From positions 10,392-74,391 of the forward strand of contig JALUEE010000090.1 of the NCBI GenBank assembly GCA_027053075.1: DNA of 64,000 nucleotides. Reading direction: 5' to 3'. Below, in pieces: positions 8,469 to 55,379 of this stretch. The stretch comes from a candidate division WOR-3 bacterium (GTDB lineage: Bacteria; Hydrothermota; Hydrothermia; B15-G9; WFZT01). A program made the position numbers and the translations under genes. The notes under the pieces are model-generated. The model saw only the letters and a list, made by a program, of their open reading frames with translations. It was not told the DNA's origin and made no database searches. The first letter of the stretch is position 1, and every line of letters starts with the position of its first letter.

Positions 8469-8633
8469 AGGGGTGGCCCGCGCACTCTGTGCGCGGGCCA
8501 CCCCTAAAAAAGAGAGACAACTTTTCAATCAGCCCAACATGAGCTATTTGGCGAACTTCACGTTATTTGGGTTTCCAAAAGGAATCCCCCCATCTATCTC
8601 CTCCCCCCGCATAAATTTGTTCGCGGGGGGAGG
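8469..8633. repeat. pair of GC-rich palindromic units in the divergent rpoZ / TPR-lipoprotein promoter region
   Basis: AGGGGTGGCCCGCGCAC-TCTGT-GTGCGCGGGCCACCCCT (8469-8506) and CTCCTCCCCCCGC-ATAAATTTGTT-CGCGGGGGGAGGA (8598-8633). They share motifs with the repeats at 19.3, 28.1 and 50.4 kb. Confidence 0.6.
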
Positions 8634-19159: not shown

Positions 19160-19425
19160 CCTTTCCCGTAAGAATTTACACGGGGAGAGGAAGTCTTATC
19201 TAATACCAAATCAAATTGTTGGGCCTACAACTTTTGCTATAGACTGAGTGAATTGCCACATATCAATTCCTGCAAGCACAACCTATGTGCATGGAGCACC
19301 GAAGGCACTTTCTTCATAAGTGAACCCTCTACCCGAAATTGGTAAGAATACTTATCTCCCCCGCGCTTTGCGCGGGGGAAGGCGACGGGTGGGGACATTC
19401 CGCTTAAAAACTATGTAAACAATGT
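19160..19425. repeat. intergenic mosaic repeat copy A
   Basis: GAATTTACACGGGGAGAGGAAGT block (19171-19194), CCCCCGCGC-TTTG-CGCGGGGG palindrome (19356-19378) and ACATTCCGCTTAAAAACTATGTAAAC block (19393-19420). Confidence 0.65.
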
Positions 19426-28109: not shown

Positions 28110-28345
28110 AAAATACGCCCCTCTCCCACAAACTTAGTTTGTGGAAGAGGGTGCAGGGAGAAGGTATTCCGCTTGAAAACTTAAAAATCCAAGATGTAAA
28201 CCCTCACCCCACCCCTCTCCCGCGAAGCAGGAGAGGGAGATTTTCAGATTTTTGATTGAAATTTTGTCAGATGTGACCACTAACCTCATTCATATCCCAG
28301 CAGAGAATTTACACGGGGAGAGGAAGTTTATTTTGATGGGGTGTC
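28110..28345. repeat. intergenic mosaic repeat copy B (most complete)
   Basis: CTCTCCCACAAAC-TTAG-GTTTGTGGAAGAG palindrome, GGTATTCCGCTTGAAAACTTAAAAATCCAAGATGTAAACCCTCACCCC block, CCCTCTCC-CGCGAAGCAG-GGAGAGGG palindrome, then GAATTTACACGGGGAGAGGAAGT block. Confidence 0.7.
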
Positions 28346-45336: not shown

Positions 45337-45365
45337 CTTACATTCTTTGACACAACCTTTATAAT
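45337..45365 (+). promoter_or_regulatory. putative sigma70-type promoter for the acyl-CoA ligase/dehydratase operon
   Basis: CTTACA, 17 bp, then perfect TATAAT (45360-45365). GGAGG RBS at 45385. Confidence 0.35.
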
Positions 45366-45397
45366 TTCTATGACAAAAACTTCATGGAGGTGTTTTT

Positions 45398-47068
45398 ATG
45401 GATCGTCCGTGGCTGAAATTCTACGATGAAGATGTACCACGGAGTATTGATTATCCCAGAATGCCCATCTATGGCATTCTCGATGGTTCAGCAGAAAAGT
45501 TCCCCTCCAAAACGGCTTCCATATTCTACGGTAAAAAGCTCACTTACAAAGAGCTAAAAGAATTATCCGATAGATTTGCAAATTCCCTCAAAAAACTTGT
45601 CATTGGAAAAGGAGACAAAGTAGCACTTCTCCTGCCAAACTTCCCGGGTTACGTTATTGCCTACTTTGGTGCTTTAAAATCCGGCGCTGTCGTTGTCCCA
45701 CTGAATCCCCTTTACACAGAGAGTGAGCTTGAGTTTCACTTTAACGATTCCAGTGCGGAGACCGTTGTTACAATCCCTATGTTTGTTGAAAAGGCAGCCG
45801 CACTAACGAAAAAGACACCACTCAAGCGTGTCATCGTTTCCTACATTGCTGACTTTTTACCATTTCCCCTCAGTTTTGTTCAGAAACTCAGAGAAAATCC
45901 ATATGTGAAGCGGGCAAAGAAGACCATTTCAGGTGAGCTTCTCAATATGAAAGACATGATTTCGAGCCCTGCCACTGGTTTTAAACCTGCACAGGTGAAT
46001 CCCGATGAGCTTGGAATTCTCATTTATTCGGGAGGTACAACAGGTGTGGCAAAGGGGATAATGCTCTCTCACTACGCAGTTGTGGCAAATGCCCACATGA
46101 TCAAAGCCTGGGGTCACCTTGATGAAAACGAGAGGATGCTGGCAGTGCTGCCGTTTTTTCACGGCTACGGCATGAATGTAACCATGAACGCAGCACTACT
46201 CTCGGGCATGTCCATTGTAATGCTGCCCAGATTCAGCGCGCGCGAGATGGCAAAGACCATTGATAAATACAAACCCACGCAGACCGCAGTTGTTCCCACC
46301 ATCCTCGTTGCACTTTCCGCTGTCAAAAACGTGGAAAAGTATGATTTTTCAAGCCTCAAGGCCATTTGGGTTGGAGCTGCCCCGCTGACTGCTGCCATCA
46401 AAGAGAATTTTGAGAAGAAAACCGGTGGACGTGCCATAGAGGGTTATGGCCTCACCGAGGCAGTCACTGCAATAATGGCCAATCCCATGAAGGGAAAACA
46501 CAAGGTAGGAAGTATCGGACTCCCATTCCCTGATGTTGATGCGAAAATCGTTTCACTTGATGGAACAAAAGACCTTCCATCCGGTGAGGTGGGAGAGATT
46601 GCACTAAAAACCCCGACCGTGATGCTCGGTTACTACAATAGACCCGAGGAAACTGCAAAAACCATTAAAGACGGCTGGCTTCTCACTGGGGATATTGGTT
46701 TTATGGACGAAGAGGGTTATTTTTATATAACCGACAGGAAAAAGGACCTCATCATTGTTGGTGGATTTAACGTTTTCCCGAGGGAAATTGACGAGTTGAT
46801 TTATAAGCATCCGAAGGTGAAAGAGGGAATAACTGTTGGCGTGCCTGATGAATTTAAGGGTGAGAAAATAAAAGTCTTTATCGTGCTCAAAGAGGGTGTT
46901 ACAGCCACGGCAGAAGAGTTTATTGAATATTTCAAAAAGCACCTTGCCCCCTACAAAGTGCCAAGTGAGGTAGAATTCAGGAAAGAGCTTCCAAAGAGTG
47001 CAATTGGAAAGATTCTTCGAAGGGTACTAAGAGAGGAGGAAATCAAAAAGCGTGGTAAAAATACCTAA
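45398..47068 (+). CDS. AMP-forming acyl-CoA ligase (FadD/long-chain-type)
   Basis: YSGGTTGVAKG AMP-binding P-loop, GYGLTE, TGDIGFMDEEGYFYITDRKKDLI and PKSAIGKILRR. Confidence 0.85.
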   Translation: MDRPWLKFYDEDVPRSIDYPRMPIYGILDGSAEKFPSKTASIFYGKKLTYKELKELSDRFANSLKKLVIGKGDKVALLLPNFPGYVIAYFGALKSGAVVVPLNPLYTESELEFHFNDSSAETVVTIPMFVEKAAALTKKTPLKRVIVSYIADFLPFPLSFVQKLRENPYVKRAKKTISGELLNMKDMISSPATGFKPAQVNPDELGILIYSGGTTGVAKGIMLSHYAVVANAHMIKAWGHLDENERMLAVLPFFHGYGMNVTMNAALLSGMSIVMLPRFSAREMAKTIDKYKPTQTAVVPTILVALSAVKNVEKYDFSSLKAIWVGAAPLTAAIKENFEKKTGGRAIEGYGLTEAVTAIMANPMKGKHKVGSIGLPFPDVDAKIVSLDGTKDLPSGEVGEIALKTPTVMLGYYNRPEETAKTIKDGWLLTGDIGFMDEEGYFYITDRKKDLIIVGGFNVFPREIDELIYKHPKVKEGITVGVPDEFKGEKIKVFIVLKEGVTATAEEFIEYFKKHLAPYKVPSEVEFRKELPKSAIGKILRRVLREEEIKKRGKNT

Positions 47069-48173
47069 GAGGCACGAGGTTTGCAGGAAATTTAAGGAGC
47101 AGGGGGGAAAGGTTGCGGCAGTATTGCCCATCCATTATCCGAGAGCACTTTTGAGGGCTTTTGATATACTACCTGTGGAAGTGTGGGGACCTCCTCAAGT
47201 GGACGTAAGTTATGGAGGTGCACACCTGCAGCCCTATGTTTGCTCGATAGTTCACAATGCCCTTTCGTTTCTCAAAACCGGTGGGCTGGATGAAACCGAC
47301 ATTATCATTGTTCCGCACACGTGTGACTCGCTTCAGGGATTTGGAAGCATTCTGCTTGATTTTGTTAAGCCCAGACAGCCGGTTTTTCCAATTTATTTGC
47401 CACGCGGAAAAAGGTCGGAGGATGTTGAATTTCTGGTGAATGAGTTTAAATCTCTATACAGGGGGCTCGAAAAAATTACCGGCAAAAGCCCGATGGATGA
47501 TGAGATGCTTAAGAGAATCGAAATTGAAGAGGAGGCCGATGCAAAGCTAAAAGAGCTTTATGAGATCAGGGGTGAATTTTCCTTTGAGTCAGGAAAGACC
47601 AAAAGCAGGTCAAGCAAGGGAGAAGCCCTTTCAACCTACGATTTTTACAGGGTTGTGCGGGCAAGAGAATTTTTACCAGCCGAGAAATTTATTGAGATTG
47701 CTGACGAGGTGATTTCGGAATATTCATTTGTAAGAGATGGTGTGCCTGTGATACTTTCGGGGATAGTTCCAGAGCCCATGGAGGTTTTGAATGCCATTGA
47801 AGAAGCCGGGGGATTTGTCGTTGTAGATGACCTTGCCTGCTGTGGCAGACGTCTTTATGGACGTGGAAAATCGAGTGAGCCATTGAAAAGGATGGCCGAA
47901 AGGATTATTTTCGGGCCACCTGATGTGACACGAGGGAATTTGATTGAGGAGAGGTTTGAACATTTGAAGTATCTTGCTGAGGTCACAGGGGCACGCGGTA
48001 TCATTTTCTATACTGTAAAGTTCTGCGAGCCCGAGTTATTTGATTTACCTGACCTGAAGAATATGCTGAAGAGTGCGGGGGTACCTTCGGTGCAGGTTGA
48101 GATCGATATCGGTGACCCATTACCTCATCAGACTATCACGAGATTGACTGCGTTTTTAGAGGTGCTGGCATGA
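47052..48173 (+). CDS. 2-hydroxyacyl-CoA dehydratase / benzoyl-CoA reductase family subunit (HgdB/BcrB-like), GTG start
   Basis: [26 protein letters not shown] and [11 protein letters not shown] patterns of the HgdAB/BcrBC fold. Overlaps the ligase by 17 nt. Confidence 0.7.
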
Positions 48174-49492
48174 GTTTGAAAGACCATCTCAAATATTACT
48201 GGAATGTGAAGCTTGTTGGGAGTGCCTATCTCAGGTGGCAGAGGTGGCAGGCAGAGCGGAAGCCTCGAATTCCGCGAAATTGGAGAACGAATATAATCGC
48301 ACCACCGCTGAAGATCAGTGCCCGCACAAAAGAGCTGATCTCAAGGCATTATCTTGAGGGAAGGTATGCGAATGGGCATAAGCCTGTTGCGTGGGTTACA
48401 TCTGGTGGGCCGGTCGAAATCCTTCAGGCTCTTGGCTTTTATGTTTTGTATCCTGAAAATCACGGCGCGCTCTGTGGAGCGCGCCGTTACGCTCTTGAAC
48501 TCTCAGAAGAGGCCGAAAACTACGGTTTCTCCCAGGATATTTGCTCATACGCGAGGACGGATATAGGGAGCATGCTCTCGGGGAAGACACCGATTGGAAG
48601 ACTTCCAAAGCCTGATCTTCTGCTTGCATGCACAAATATTTGTCAGACAGTGCTTTTCTGGTATCGAGTGCTTGCAAAGCATTTTAACGTTCCGATTATC
48701 CTGATTGACACACCATTCGTTTACAAAGATGCACCGGAGCACGCTATTGAATACGTGAAAAAGCAGCTCGAGGCTTCGATTCCGGTGGCCCAGAGGGTTG
48801 CAAAGAAAAAGCTTAGCTTTAAAAAATTAAAGGAAGTTGTGAGGCTCAGCCGTGAGGCTTCTGAGCTGTGGCTCGAGATTATGTATAGGGGAAAGGCAAA
48901 GCCTGCCCCGATCTCGGTTTTTGACCAGTTCATACACATGGCTCCAATTGTGGAGATGCGGGGTAAACCCGAAACGGTGGATTTTTACGCAGCAATGCTC
49001 AAAGAGGTTGATGAAAGAATCAAAAAGGGTATCGGAGCAGTGAAGAATGAGAGGAAAAGGCTGCTCTGGGATAATTTGCCCATCTGGTATAAACTGAGAT
49101 TCCTTGCGGAGTATCTTGGTGAGCATGGGATTTCGGTGGTTGCTTCTACTTATACCATGGCATGGGGTGAGCTTGCCCCATTGATTGACCCGGAAAGACC
49201 CATTGAATCAATGGCAAAGACTTATATTTACCCAATTTTGAATCGTGGAACAGGCTACAAGTTGCAAAAGATGAGGGACATGGTTGAGGAATTTGACCTT
49301 GATGGTGCAATTTTGCATTCTGACCGCTCGTGTAAGCCTTATTCTATCGGACAGGTGGATCAGAGGAACAGATTGATCAGTGAATACGGGATACCTGCTC
49401 TTATTTTAGAGGCTGATCATAATGATCCCCGGGCATTTGCAGATGAGCAGGTAAAAGCAAGACTTGATTCATTTATAGAGATGCTGGAATGA
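48170..49492 (+). CDS. 2-hydroxyacyl-CoA dehydratase family subunit (HgdA/BcrC-like)
   Basis: [32 protein letters not shown] and [10 protein letters not shown] Cys ligand context. ATGA overlap upstream. Confidence 0.7.
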
Positions 49493-50265
49493 TTAAAGCA
49501 ATAGGAATTGATGTAGGTTCAACAACGGCAAAGATTGTAGGAGTTAACGAGGGTGGGGACTTTGTGTGGAGCTATATTGAACCTGCCGACCCAAGGGTAG
49601 AGGACCAGGTGGAGAGGTTTCTCGAGAAGGTCAGGGAAGTGGCAGGTTCCATTGAAGGAATTCCCATAGTGGCAACAGGTTATGGAAGAAACCTTGTCCA
49701 TCAGGCAACGAAGAAGGTGACAGAAATCACCTGCCATGCGCGCGGGGTTTTCAAGCAGCTTGGCCATGGTGGAACGCTTGTGGATATTGGTGGACAGGAC
49801 AGTAAGGTGATTGTAATAGGGCCGCATGGAGAGGTGGTGGATTTCACCATGAACGACAAGTGCGCCGCAGGGACAGGAAGATTTCTTGAAAATACTGCCG
49901 GAAGGCTCAGGGTGAAGCTCGAAGAGATGGGGAGTGTGGCCCTCTCTGCTCCTGAAGAGGTGAAAATTTCCAGTACGTGTACGGTTTTTGCTGAATCTGA
50001 GATTATTTCAATGATTGCTCATGGTGTGAGGGTTGAGCCCATTTTAAAGGGGCTTCACAGGTCCCTTGTGAAGCGAATTGTTGCCATGATTAGAAGTGTG
50101 GGGCTGGTGCCTCCATTGATGCTGTCCGGGGGAGTAGTAAAAAACCCGGCAATAAGGAAGATGATTGAGGAAGAAACGGGAGAGAAGGTAATTTTACCCG
50201 AGCACCCGCAGTTCATGGGCGCCTACGGCGCCGCCTTGATAGGATTGAAGTTGGGGAAAGGGTAG
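49489..50265 (+). CDS. CoA-substrate-specific enzyme activase (BadF/BadG/BcrA/BcrD/HgdC ATPase)
   Basis: [14 protein letters not shown]-terminal ASKHA motif and [12 protein letters not shown]; ATGA overlap. Confidence 0.85.
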
Positions 50266-50364
50266 GCAAATTAGGAGAATTATTAAATTCAAAGAATTTT
50301 GTTTACTTTCCTGAGAGTTATTTGGTTATAGCAATCCCCATTGGAAATTATAAAATATAGCCCC

Positions 50365-50665
50365 TCACCTTGCCTCTCCCCGCAAAGAATTTATGCGGGG
50401 AGAGGAAGTTTTTGGGTGTAGGAGTAATTGATTGAACATGCAAACGGAGCGCATAGGCTAAATGAATTTCCACCTGTACATCCCTGCAATCACAATATAA
50501 ATTACCAGAAAACCAAGTAGAACCTTTCTAACAAGCGAAACTTGTTTCCCCCAACAACACAAAATATTTCCCTCCCCTGCGCTTTGCGCTGGGGAGGGTG
50601 AGGGAGGGGTATTCCGCTTGAAATCTTGAAATTACATATCTAAACCATCACCCTTACCCCCTTCT
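50365..50665. repeat. intergenic mosaic repeat copy E
   Basis: CCTCTCCCCGC-AAAGAATTTAT-GCGGGGAGAGG palindrome with embedded GAATTTATGCGGGGAGAGGAAGT block, CCCTCCCCTGCGC-TTTG-CGCTGGGGAGGG palindrome, then GGTATTCCGCTTGAAATCTTGAAATTACATATCTAAACCATCACCC block. Confidence 0.7.
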
Positions 50666-50906
50666 GCTAAGCTGAAGAGGTAGATAGATTTTTCCTCAAA
50701 ACTTTTGAAATGTAGCCTCTTTCCTCAACCCTCTTAAACAAATTTTTGTGGGAAAAGTTTTTTATAAAATCGTCAACCTGTTTGAGCCCCCTCGTTTAGA
50801 CGCTTCCTCGTAATTATGCGCCCCAATTTACACTGTAGCAAATTCAACAATGTGCACCAATAGAAACCCGGTTGTTTGTGCCATCGGTGGAAATTATCAT
50901 ATCAAT

Positions 50907-52673
50907 ATGAAGAAAGAGTTGAGGCCTGAGGAACTCAAAGATAGCCTGATTTCAGGTGCGGCCAATGTTATTAAAAATCGGGAAAAGCTCAACAAGATCA
51001 ACGTCTTCCCGGTGCCGGATGGGGATACCGGTTCAAACCTTGCGGAGACCTTCAAAAGTATTCTCCAAACCCTAAAAAGTCGCGATTTTGACAGTGCCCA
51101 CGCTCTTCTCAGTGCTGTATCACGAAACATGCTTAGAAATGCCAGAGGAAATTCAGGGGTCATATTTTCCCAATTTTTCTACAGTTTCAGCAAGTCTTTG
51201 AAGGGCAAGAAAAACGTTTCAATTCATGATTTTGCGGAAAGTATGAAGCAATCTATCAAAAAGACCTATGAAGCACTTGAAAAGCCTGTCGAAGGCACTG
51301 TTCTCACGGTCATCAGAGAGGTATCCGAAGAGGCTGAGAAAATTTCCTTGAAGGTAAATGATTTTCGTGAATTTATAGAGCATCTTCAGGAAACCGCTAA
51401 AAAATCGGTTGAAAAAACGCGGGAGACATTGCCACAGTTGAAAAAGGCACGGGTGGTGGATGCCGGTGGACTCGGATTCCTTTATTTTTTACAGGGAATT
51501 TCTGCTTATTTTAAAGGAGATAGGATTAAATTTGATGAGGATTTTTCGGCATCCCGCGTTGACGAATACAAGGCTGAATTTAGCGAGAAGTATAGATATT
51601 GTACAGAAGTTTTACTTGAGGATAGCAGATTAAATTCTGTTGAAATAAAAAGGAAGCTCTCTTCTCTTGGAGATTCCCTTATTGTTGTGGGTGACCCGGC
51701 TCTATTTCACATACATATTCACACAGACGAGCCTGAAAAAGTTTTTAAAACACTTTCCGAAGTTGGAAAAATCAGGATGAAAAAGGCCGACGACATGCAT
51801 GCGCAGGTGCGCATCAGGCAGGATTATGCAATTCTTGTGGATTCAGGAATGGACCTCCCTCCTTCGTATTATCAAAAATATGGGTTCAAGGTAATTCCCT
51901 TTCAGGTTTTCGTCGGGAATAAATCGTATAAAGAAGGAGTGGATATATCTCGTGAAGAGATTATAAAAATCCTCACTTCAAACAGATGGAAAGAATTGAA
52001 AACCTCGCAGCCTGCCTTCTCCGATTATTTAGAAGCTTATAAAGAGCTCTTAAACCGGGCTCGTCACGTATATGCCATTCATCTATCTTCAAATTTCAGT
52101 GGCACATATTCGAGTTCGGTTACAGCCGCGGAAAGGATTGACCCTGAGCGTATCACGGTTTTTGACACAAAACTGTTCAGTATTGCTGCTGGTCTGCTGG
52201 CTTTAAGGATCAGAGATATGATTGAGAAAAAGATGCCGCGAGAGGAAATTCTAAAGAAAATTGAAGAAATTCGGCTCCAATCCTTTGCTGTAATAGTTCT
52301 CGATACCATGAAAAATTTGGTTCATGGAGGTAGGGCTGGGAAGCTTAAAGGAGGGTTTGTAGATTTCCTTGGTATCAAATTGATTATCACCATTGATGAG
52401 GATGGATACCTCAAAAAACTCACCCAGGCCTTTGGAAGAAAAGCCGCCCTCAAGAAAGTTTTATCTCTTTTGCGAGAGAAACTGGACCCGGGACGCACTT
52501 ATGACTTTGGAATAGCTCACGTAAATACACCTCAAAAAGTGGAGTTTATCAGGGAATTCATCAGGTCAAATTTTAAGTACAGGGACATTATCGTGAACTA
52601 CACCACCCCTGCAATTGCTGTCTATGGTGGTCCTGGAGCTTATGGGGTATTTGCGGTACCTGTAGAAGAATAG
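50907..52673 (+). CDS. DAK2-domain fusion protein (YloV/FakA-like fatty-acid kinase subunit)
   Basis: VFPVPDGDTGSNL Dak2 motif, a middle domain, and a C-terminal EDD/DegV-like domain (ILVDSGMDLP..., SSNFSGTY). Start taken at the second Met (MKKELRPEEL). Confidence 0.75.
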   Translation: MKKELRPEELKDSLISGAANVIKNREKLNKINVFPVPDGDTGSNLAETFKSILQTLKSRDFDSAHALLSAVSRNMLRNARGNSGVIFSQFFYSFSKSLKGKKNVSIHDFAESMKQSIKKTYEALEKPVEGTVLTVIREVSEEAEKISLKVNDFREFIEHLQETAKKSVEKTRETLPQLKKARVVDAGGLGFLYFLQGISAYFKGDRIKFDEDFSASRVDEYKAEFSEKYRYCTEVLLEDSRLNSVEIKRKLSSLGDSLIVVGDPALFHIHIHTDEPEKVFKTLSEVGKIRMKKADDMHAQVRIRQDYAILVDSGMDLPPSYYQKYGFKVIPFQVFVGNKSYKEGVDISREEIIKILTSNRWKELKTSQPAFSDYLEAYKELLNRARHVYAIHLSSNFSGTYSSSVTAAERIDPERITVFDTKLFSIAAGLLALRIRDMIEKKMPREEILKKIEEIRLQSFAVIVLDTMKNLVHGGRAGKLKGGFVDFLGIKLIITIDEDGYLKKLTQAFGRKAALKKVLSLLREKLDPGRTYDFGIAHVNTPQKVEFIREFIRSNFKYRDIIVNYTTPAIAVYGGPGAYGVFAVPVEE

Positions 52674-54858: not shown

Positions 54859-55122
54859 TTACCTCACAGGGTCGTAACCTCCGGGATTTAGTGGATTACA
54901 ACGCAAGATTCTCCAGATAGACATTAAACCTCCTTTTAAGATTCCGTATTTTTTGATTGCCTCGATGCTGTAATTTGAACAGGTTGGGTAAAATCTACAG
55001 GTGTGTGGGAGAGAGGGAGAAATAGCCCTTTGATAAAATTTAATCAGGGAAATTGCAATGTCACTCAGGAATTTTCCAGGTCCTTTGCGAACCTTTTCAG
55101 GTCTTCCTGAATCTCCTCCCAT
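54859..55122 (-). CDS. yidD: membrane protein insertion efficiency factor YidD (start uncertain)
   Basis: [37 protein letters not shown] is the YidD core. The ORF-track call (155 aa) runs into rnpA; an internal Met at 55122 would give 88 aa. Confidence 0.65.
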
Positions 55123-55379
55123 CTGGCCCTCAATGTATTGTGAGAGCCCATGAATATGTATTTCCCGGGTGGTAAGATGTCCAGGTTCAGCCTCACGACT
55201 TCCCTGAGCCTCCTCTTGACCCGATTTTTTTTGACCCTGGTTCTTAACTTTTTTGAAGCCGCGAAGCCGAATTTCTTTTCTTCTGACGGTACCCAGTACA
55301 CCACGAATGTTTTTAATCTTCTCCATCTCCCGTTTTTTATAATATAAAAAAAATCCTCGTTCTTCTTTAAGGTTTCCAA
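55065..55379 (-). CDS. rnpA: ribonuclease P protein component
   Basis: Basic [19 protein letters not shown]-like motif; sits between rpmH and yidD. Confidence 0.8.

Follow-up and report, generated by a model that had tools for sequence, protein, structure and literature searches.

A probable ligase-dependent operon of the 2-hydroxyacyl-CoA dehydratase type in a candidate division WOR-3 bacterium

A four-gene module and its protein families

We describe here a module of four genes found in a stretch of 64,000 nucleotides (nt) from a candidate division WOR-3 bacterium (assembly GCA_027053075.1, contig JALUEE010000090.1), hereafter the window. The module encodes an AMP-forming acyl-coenzyme A (CoA) ligase, two subunits belonging to the family of 2-hydroxyacyl-CoA dehydratases (HAD) as well as an ATPase of the type that activates such enzymes. 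We consider it probable that together they constitute a ligase-dependent, self-contained HAD-type system with its own dedicated ligase. All four genes lie on the forward strand:

45398-47068, + strand: FadD-type AMP-forming acyl-CoA ligase, 556 amino acids (aa), ATG start
47052-48173, + strand: HAD beta-like subunit (HadC/BzdN-like), 373 aa, GTG start
48170-49492, + strand: HAD alpha-like catalytic subunit (HadB/BzdO-like), 440 aa, ATG start
49489-50265, + strand: single ATP-dependent electron-activating ATPase (activase), 258 aa, ATG start

The first-pass annotation of this DNA had described a fully overlapped operon, and this is what we found: the four same-strand open reading frames (ORFs) overlap by 17 nt, then by ATGA and again by ATGA. 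At the 17-nt overlap between ligase and beta, an AGGAGG sequence lies 12 nt upstream of the beta GTG, and this start codon is credible because the alignments of beta homologs from other loci begin at residue 1-4. A horizontal origin of the genes was also considered. The G+C content of the four module genes, overall and at third codon positions, is that of the neighbouring dnaB and cysS, and there is no sign of a recent transfer.

The domain content bears out the earlier proposal of an HgdAB/BcrBC-family pair plus a BadF/BadG/HgdC-type activase. In Pfam, the ligase matches AMP-binding (311 bits) and AMP-binding_C, both large subunits match HGD-D (PF06050; 253 bits for alpha and 194 bits for beta) and the activase matches BcrAD_BadFG (199 bits). 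Classification of the large subunits with hidden Markov models, suggested in the first-pass annotation, placed the HadB and HadC models first, over those of benzoyl-CoA reductases (BCRs) and double-cubane proteins. The NCBIfam scores of alpha are 287 bits for HadB (cutoff 750), 172 for BcrB, 148 for BzdO and 77 for the double-cubane model NF040772 (cutoff 350), and those of beta are 122 bits for HadC (cutoff 700), 99 for NF040772 (cutoff 350) and 87 for both BzdN and BcrC. The activase passes the acyl-CoA dehydratase activase model TIGR00241 with 249 bits (cutoff 125.4).

Among proteins of the PDB, the top sequence matches are HadB for alpha (E 1e-68; 32-33% identity) and HadC for beta (E 2e-29, with BzdN at 1e-23); the closest solved structures after these are BzdO/BzdN, MbdO/MbdN and DCCP. 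The AlphaFold model of alpha is confident (predicted template-modelling score, pTM, 0.87), and a fold search with it ranked HadB (template-modelling score, TM, 0.91; root-mean-square deviation 2.2 A) above BzdO/MbdO (TM about 0.81) and DCCP (TM about 0.72). For the activase, the PDB matches are MbdQ (198 bits), HadI (194 bits) and HgdC (168 bits).

Cluster ligands and active-site residues of the subunits

The earlier annotation had left a dehydratase and a reductase side by side. The family stands, and the diagnostic residues narrow the choice in favour of the dehydratase type. In BzdO, an aqua-[4Fe-4S] cluster is bound through Cys95, Cys128 and Cys380, and the active site contains Glu65, His131 and Trp46; HadB has the same cluster coordination without the His. 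BzdN holds an [8Fe-9S] double cubane on six Cys (36, 73, 100, 263, 293 and 327), whereas HadC has a single cubane only (PMC11971306).

HMMER alignment places C125, C158 and C388 of alpha at BzdO Cys95, Cys128 and Cys380, and E96 at Glu65, which corresponds to a three-Cys [4Fe-4S] site with an open iron together with the active-site Glu. These four residues are invariant in 75 orthologs. BzdO His131 is replaced by Val161, an invariant Val throughout the clade, and Trp46 by Gly80, where the clade has Gly or Ala. In beta, C64, C91 and C325 align with the cluster Cys of HadC and are invariant (71-75 orthologs), as in a single cubane held by three Cys and not in a double cubane held by six. Counted by the [8Fe-9S] ligand positions of BzdN, beta has Cys at four of six (C64, C91, C263 and C325), while Pro and Asp stand at the positions of Cys36 and Cys293, so that a double cubane cannot be built. 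The activase is encoded separately by a single gene and has two cluster Cys per monomer, C125 and C164, which align with those of HadI and MbdQ and are invariant in orthologs. Loss of cluster-ligating Cys, a concern raised in the first-pass annotation, is thus not seen in any of the three proteins. On the basis of the cluster inventory, the active-site residues and the single ATPase gene, we regard the module as HAD-like and not as BCR- or DCCP-like.

Two further ideas about alpha were discarded. Cys102 is not a clade-specific extra ligand, being present in 57 of 120 family representatives, and alpha cannot house a double cubane, C388 being the only Cys of its C-terminal half. Alpha also carries an N-terminal extension of about 45 aa (window 48170-48304), rich in Trp, Arg and Lys, which is predicted with confidence to form a long helix at residues 3-30 (predicted local distance difference test, pLDDT, of the block 80-92). 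This extension has no counterpart in HadB or BzdO and was found only in two sister groups and in one representative at 40% identity.

Some traits of the module are nevertheless BCR-like, namely C263 of beta with the Arg that follows it, the order of the genes and the presence of a ligase. The Cys-Cys pair C263/C264 of beta (window 47838-47843) is about 85% conserved in the clade. In the alignment, C263 falls on BzdN Cys263, which is a ligand to the distal [8Fe-9S] sub-cluster and where HadC has no Cys, and the Arg after the pair falls on BzdN Arg267. C263 may be a relic of evolution, or it may supply the beta cluster with a fourth protein ligand. Regarding gene order, the first-pass annotation had noted a difference from hgdCAB and hadIBC. 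This holds, also for fldIBC, but the order beta-like, alpha-like, ATPase is that of the class I BCR operons bcrCBAD and bzdNOPQ, a resemblance only.

The module might instead encode a BCR-type, or BCR/HAD-intermediate, ATP-dependent reductase, whose ligase would make an aryl-, alkenyl- or otherwise unsaturated acyl-CoA and which would consume ATP stoichiometrically. A gamma-like, a beta-like and an ATPase gene in this order, with a dedicated ligase, would mirror those two operons and their benzoate-CoA ligases. Besides the partial conservation of the distal sub-cluster positions, the matches of alpha to BcrB/BzdO and of beta to BcrC/BzdN, the similarity of the alpha fold to BzdO/MbdO and the rank of MbdQ as best PDB match of the activase speak for this possibility. 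Also, the ATPase and catalytic dimers of the BZD type are predicted to associate only transiently (PMC11971306). On the other side, two of the six double-cubane Cys are missing from beta, and alpha has no equivalents of His131 and Trp46. Class I BCRs have two different ATPase subunits (P/Q or A/D) and the module has one ATPase gene; no second BcrAD_BadFG gene was found beside it in the window or in the related loci examined. Genes for ferredoxin, dienoyl-CoA hydratase or other parts of a ring pathway are not recurrent in the vicinity, the ligase is FadD-like (benzoate-CoA ligase structures score 160 bits against 273 bits for FadD-1), and in NCBIfam the HAD-type models give the higher scores for all three proteins. 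A reductase therefore seems unlikely to us, and the HAD-type assignment is the one we keep in what follows.

The nearest characterized relative is HadBC with its activator HadI from Clostridioides difficile (PDB 3O3M/3O3N and 4EHT), likewise made of two paralogous HGD-D subunits and a separate ATPase, with three-Cys sites in both subunits, the conserved Glu and no BCR-type His/Trp. HadBC is the best match of alpha in sequence and fold and of beta in sequence. It differs from the module in its order, hadI-hadB-hadC as opposed to beta-alpha-activase, and in the activating enzyme, a FadD-type ligase here taking the place of the CoA-transferase HadA; ldhA, acdB and etfBA are not linked to the module. 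Additionally, the module alpha has the helical extension and the extra, invariant Cys102, its residues 79-80 are Gly-Gly or Gly-Ala in the clade where HadB has Val-Phe (and BzdO Ala45-Trp46), and the module beta has the extra Cys pair 263/264.

As representatives of class I BCRs we compared BzdNOPQ of Aromatoleum (8S02), MbdONPQ of Thauera chlorobenzoica (9GAI) and BcrCBAD of Thauera aromatica. They belong to the same superfamily and receive their substrate from a dedicated AMP-forming ligase, alpha is about as long as BzdO (440 and 447 aa), and the module ATPase is as close to MbdQ as to HadI. They are set apart by the cluster ligands, active-site residues and ATPase number already described, by a ligase that is benzoate-CoA-ligase-like and not FadD-like, and by ring-pathway genes, none of which lies near the module. 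The double-cubane cluster protein DCCP with DCCP-R from Carboxydothermus hydrogenoformans (6ENO, 7YYL) shares the fold family and the type of ATPase partner. DCCP is a homodimer with six Cys per subunit, unlike the module with its two distinct subunits of 3-4 ligand Cys each. The plasmalogen synthase PlsA/PlsR is, as described, a two-gene plsA-plsR operon with activation (ATPase) domains fused to the reduction/dehydration domain (PMC12838417); this description sets it apart from the module, where the ATPase is a separate protein of 258 aa and alpha and beta each contain HGD-D only. Five differences from characterized HADs stand out: the gene order, a FadD-type ligase without CoA-transferase, the alpha extension, the relic Cys of beta and a range outside Clostridia.

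The ligase, its genomic company and the proposed reaction

The top eight NCBIfam matches of the ligase are all long-chain fatty-acid-CoA ligases, and every one is below its cutoff (best model PRK06710, 544 bits against 1116; FadD model PRK08974, 448 against 884). The protein is collinear with Escherichia coli FadD over its full length of 556 aa, at 39% identity. Its best PDB match, far above the benzoate-CoA ligase structures, is Archaeoglobus fulgidus FadD-1 (3G7S), like FadD a long-chain fatty acyl-CoA synthetase. Unlike these two enzymes, it belongs to a separate, tight orthogroup (63-100% identity among the best 120 matches) and misses all NCBIfam equivalog cutoffs. It is best classified as a FadD-type AMP-forming acyl-CoA ligase of an orthogroup of its own that is genetically tied to HAD genes.

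This tie is seen across many loci. Of 52 informative loci, 27 have an ortholog of the ligase (at least 55% identity, range 60-97%) next to the trio of beta, alpha and activase genes. Three arrangements occur, with the ligase upstream at 19 loci, downstream on the same strand at 6 and convergent at 2. In a reciprocal sample of eight diverse ligase orthologs on long contigs, six adjoin at least one HAD-system gene, four of them the full trio, one beta-alpha only and one the activase alone. That the linkage has outlived rearrangements in different phyla argues strongly for the ligase as a part of the system, in line with the earlier proposal of a dedicated ligase feeding the radical enzyme with some acid. 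The same counts answer the doubt, raised with that proposal, that the ligase could be a generic FadD. It is very improbable, in our opinion, that the ligase has no functional relation to the HAD trio, being a generic FadD that came to lie there by chance, and that a CoA-transferase encoded elsewhere activates the substrate. The other 25 informative loci, where no ligase ortholog lies within 2 kb or more of the trio, and the two sampled ligase orthologs with no HAD gene in their flanks would fit such a view. Against it, the adjacency is kept in many named lineages in its different arrangements, including an activase-ligase pair apart from beta-alpha, the identity within the orthogroup (60-97%) is far above the 39% to FadD, the ligase coding region overlaps beta by 17 nt in the window, and no CoA-transferase recurs nearby.

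The first-pass annotation had also stressed that a ligase stands in place of the usual CoA-transferase. This is correct for the module, yet a ligase gene in a HAD cluster has a precedent in fldL of the phenyllactate dehydratase cluster fldLAIBC of Clostridium sporogenes, there beside a CoA-transferase (PMC12064059). In the fld cluster, the CoA-transferase FldA is the main activating enzyme, fldH, acdA and etfAB are also present, and the order is activator, alpha, beta, whereas the only recurrent partner of the module is the ligase.

All-against-all clustering of ORFs from 86 loci gave no recurrent family beyond the four module genes. A Pfam tally of 245 flanking ORFs showed no enriched family either, the most frequent being generic methyltransferase (5), Fe-ADH (3) and AFOR (2); enoyl-CoA hydratase and ferredoxin were not among the recurrent families listed. 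ORFs were called crudely at these loci, where a true gene can lose its place to an antisense ORF, and weak themes may have escaped notice. In the window, tatC, lnt, dnaB and cysS lie upstream of the module, while downstream of it there are a FakA-DegV fusion, jag, yidC and yidD; at another locus the neighbours include the hrcA-grpE-dnaK-dnaJ genes and tyrS. Since there is no recurrent partner and the neighbours are often housekeeping genes, we regard the module as autonomous, and its context is silent on the pathway.

Some individual loci, designated by L numbers, deserve mention. At L087 (5099-7698), an activase-ligase pair with no HGD-D gene nearby adjoins an aminotransferase and an ADP-forming acyl-CoA synthetase. 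Several Anaerolineae loci have beta-alpha without an adjacent activase (L042-L049, L054, L055 and L082 are among the contigs that look split). The pair at L087 suggests a module divided two and two, activase-ligase and beta-alpha, and the Anaerolineae loci would agree with such a division. At L089 (4119-7671), a ligase ortholog (74%) closes a same-strand row DegV (FakB-like)-PlsX-ligase, with no HAD gene in the 6 kb upstream and the contig ending 1.5 kb downstream. At L090 (6001-9615), in a metagenome-assembled genome (MAG) of Caldilineales, a ligase ortholog (65%) is followed on the same strand by a 595-aa thiamine pyrophosphate (TPP) enzyme, whose NCBIfam matches are PRK05858 (418 bits) and then 2-hydroxyacyl-CoA lyase (317 bits), both below cutoffs; this single case hints that the product of the ligase may be a 2-hydroxyacyl-CoA. 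In the window itself, 50850-52673 (+ strand) encodes a 607-aa fusion in which two domains of fatty acid kinase FakA, the Dak2 domain of its N-terminus and its middle domain, are joined to a complete DegV domain, FakB-like and of the fatty-acid-binding kind. By its domains the fusion looks like a single-chain fatty acid kinase, and it is syntenic only in the closest WOR-3 MAG (L007). With the DegV-PlsX row of L089, this neighbour provides a weak link to fatty-acid handling.

These cases bear on another possibility, that the module is a lipid-directed enzyme of the HAD family. Here the ligase would activate a long-chain fatty acid, possibly taken up, and the radical enzyme would modify its chain without oxygen, for example by turning 2-enoyl into 2-hydroxy fatty acyl-CoA or the reverse, be it to make or remodel membrane lipids or in anaerobic alpha-oxidation, as a low-flux housekeeping function and not as a fermentation. 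The ligase is closest to long-chain fatty acyl-CoA synthetases, the FakA-DegV fusion lies downstream, and ligase orthologs occur in the DegV-PlsX row and beside the TPP enzyme whose second-best model is the lyase. An AMP-forming ligase also fits low-flux biosynthesis or salvage better than fermentation, the neighbours are of housekeeping type (dnaB, cysS and yidC here; the hrcA-grpE-dnaK-dnaJ genes and tyrS elsewhere), and with plasmalogen synthase one lipid enzyme is already counted among the HAD family (PMC12838417). However, the lipid-gene neighbours are single cases in flanks with no enriched family, the architecture is unlike the fused activation and reduction domains of PlsA/PlsR, and likeness to the FadD family does not set chain length. 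We give this role a rather low probability, noting that its chemistry overlaps with that of the HAD-type dehydratase.

For the dehydratase itself, the following scheme carries over by homology the established HAD mechanism (reviewed in PMC11574389). At the expense of ATP, which would be split into AMP and pyrophosphate, the FadD-type ligase would make the CoA thioester of a free acid; the likeliest candidate is an aliphatic 2-hydroxy acid that is medium- or long-chain, or bulky in some other way. A homodimer of the ATPase, bridging a [4Fe-4S] cluster, would then hydrolyse ATP to drive one low-potential electron into the beta cluster. From there the electron would pass to the [4Fe-4S] cluster of alpha, held by three Cys with one open iron, and turn the thioester into a ketyl radical, from which the 2-hydroxyl would be eliminated and (E)-2-enoyl-CoA released. 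The electron would be recycled for further turnovers and the enoyl-CoA would be handled by enzymes encoded elsewhere in the genome. We infer in this way the reaction, its direction, the catalytic and not stoichiometric use of ATP and the class of substrate. For the last, two features are weak pointers to an acyl group that is aliphatic and of medium to long chain, or bulky in some other way: the ligase is FadD-like, and alpha 79-80 are Gly-Gly or Gly-Ala, which would agree with a larger acyl pocket.

Several observations weigh against a dehydratase of this kind. Alpha and HadB are just 32-33% identical and the equivalog cutoffs are missed widely (HadB 287 against 750, HadC 122 against 700), BCR operons have a similar order of genes and likewise rely on a ligase, and the activase scores marginally higher against the BCR subunit MbdQ than against HadI (198 and 194 bits). 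The substrate class was derived from the family likeness of the ligase and two pocket positions alone. An AMP-forming ligase is energetically costly in a fermentative pathway, 25 of the 52 informative loci have no adjacent ligase ortholog, and CoA-transferase, (R)-2-hydroxyacid dehydrogenase, acyl-CoA dehydrogenase and Etf genes were never recurrent beside the module in the 86 loci and 245 flanking ORFs. Not every member of the HAD family dehydrates CoA esters, PlsA/PlsR being an example of one that does not (PMC12838417). In a scan of species-representative genomes that gave 347 relatives of alpha, from the best 80 of which the details were taken, no cultured carrier was found among these 80, all of them MAGs. 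In sum, every structural HAD trait that can be examined in silico is present, and the equivalog thresholds and the canonical pathway context are not reached.

A broader and more speculative idea, which we hold only tentatively and think rather improbable, is that the module serves an oxygen-independent handling of 2-hydroxy, possibly long-chain, acids common to many uncultured anaerobic phyla. In one version it would be the entry step of anaerobic alpha-oxidation or of 2-hydroxy-fatty-acid salvage (2-hydroxyacyl-CoA to or from 2-enoyl-CoA); in another, the anaerobic counterpart of the oxygen-dependent fatty-acid 2-hydroxylases, serving membrane lipids. Alternatively, it may stand between benzoyl-CoA reductases and dehydratases as an intermediate of their evolution that has survived, with a chemistry of its own, and the BCR-like order, the ligase, the relic Cys of beta and the MbdQ-like ATPase are compatible with this last version.

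Flanking signals, distribution and implications

The operon is flanked by the following signals:

45337-45365, + strand: sigma-70-like promoter CTTACA-17-TATAAT, 10 of 12 matches, TATAAT kept in relatives
45366-45397, + strand: short conserved 5' region (TTCTATGACAAAAACTTCATGGAGGTG...), including the Shine-Dalgarno sequence GGAGG at 45386-45390
50373-50413, + strand: likely intrinsic terminator, a perfect 12-bp G+C-rich hairpin (50373-50405) followed by T5 (50409-50413)

The first-pass annotation had placed a TATAAT promoter before a 230-nt leader. We retain the promoter and not the leader: the TATAAT ends 32 nt upstream of the ligase ATG, so the leader would measure about 25 nt, and the 232 nt from the cysS stop (45165) to the ATG are an intergenic spacer. 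When the sequences upstream of the module in five WOR-3 relatives are aligned with this one, the sole conserved block is the TATAAT and the approximately 25 nt that lead into GGAGG and ATG. The TATAAT is kept in L007, L008, L009 and L011 despite divergent spacers and is degenerate (TATGAC) in L017. The rest of the spacer showed no conservation beyond the same species in these alignments, and no Rfam family matched within its 232 nt; a riboswitch or other structured leader was ruled out on these grounds. Promoter-like matches in the region are not enriched over shuffled sequences (10 found, 8.4 expected), so the promoter call rests on the conservation of the TATAAT and not on the scan.

At the other end, the arms of the hairpin at 50373-50405 are 100% complementary and the fold of 50355-50425 has an energy of -34.9 kcal/mol (z -5.1). 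A consensus terminator scan missed this hairpin on account of its 9-nt loop, and together with the T5 it is likely the terminator of the operon. The 585-nt spacer that follows the operon (50266-50849) contains two near-perfect G+C-rich hairpins, at 50373-50405 and 50570-50598, built on a CCTCTCCCC/GGGGAGAGG motif. This motif is over-represented in the window, with 28 matches where 15.3 are expected and none of 100 shuffles reaching 28, and several copies are intergenic (sites include ~8600-8633, 19182-19334, 28120-28323 and 55687). This pattern suggests a family of palindromic elements similar to repetitive extragenic palindromic (REP) sequences. Further downstream, at 54859-55326 (- strand) and upstream of yidC, a 155-aa ORF has a YidD domain only at residues 90-154 and no Pfam match at E <=1e-5 in its N-terminal 90 residues; it may be a mis-called start or a fusion.

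The module has a wide distribution. Alpha has more than 3,700 relatives at E <=1e-20, of which the best 120 cluster representatives are 67-98% identical, and identity across phyla is 64-98%. In an exhaustive search of representatives at 50% identity, the whole alpha clade collapsed into a single one (64% identity, 653 bits), with two sister groups at 49-52% and all others at 44% or less, and by these values the clade constitutes a discrete orthogroup. The best genome match is a candidate division WOR-3 MAG at 98% identity with the syntenic row cysS-ligase-beta-alpha-activase-fakA. The best 80 of the 347 genome matches are named as WOR-3, Anaerolineae/Thermoflexales, Thermodesulfobacteriota, Melioribacteraceae, Calditrichia, Desulfurellales/Hippea, Deferribacteres and Aquificales. 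At every locus where genes for both subunits were detected, beta comes before alpha; at 60 loci the activase gene stands immediately after them. We found no paper in the full-text literature that describes this ligase and HAD cluster, with searches from the WOR-3, Anaerolineae and 2-hydroxy fatty acid angles; a candidate from Syntrophomonas wolfei proteomics, Swol_0412, could not be tied to the clade of the module.

Among the reductive reactions of anaerobes, some of the most demanding are catalysed by radical enzymes of the HAD family, and their known substrates are a handful, nearly all from amino-acid-fermenting Clostridia and from degraders of aromatic compounds. The module described here is spread through abundant uncultured lineages of sediments and hydrothermal environments. 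Its chemistry is probably familiar. Metagenome annotations routinely call it "benzoyl-CoA reductase" or else "2-hydroxyglutaryl-CoA dehydratase", and these labels can mislead metabolic reconstructions. As the ligase is genetically tied to the enzyme, the question of the substrate can be tested directly. Furthermore, the mixture of BCR-like and HAD-like features in one module is relevant to the evolution of the family, for which a loss of parts of the clusters has been proposed (PMC11971306).

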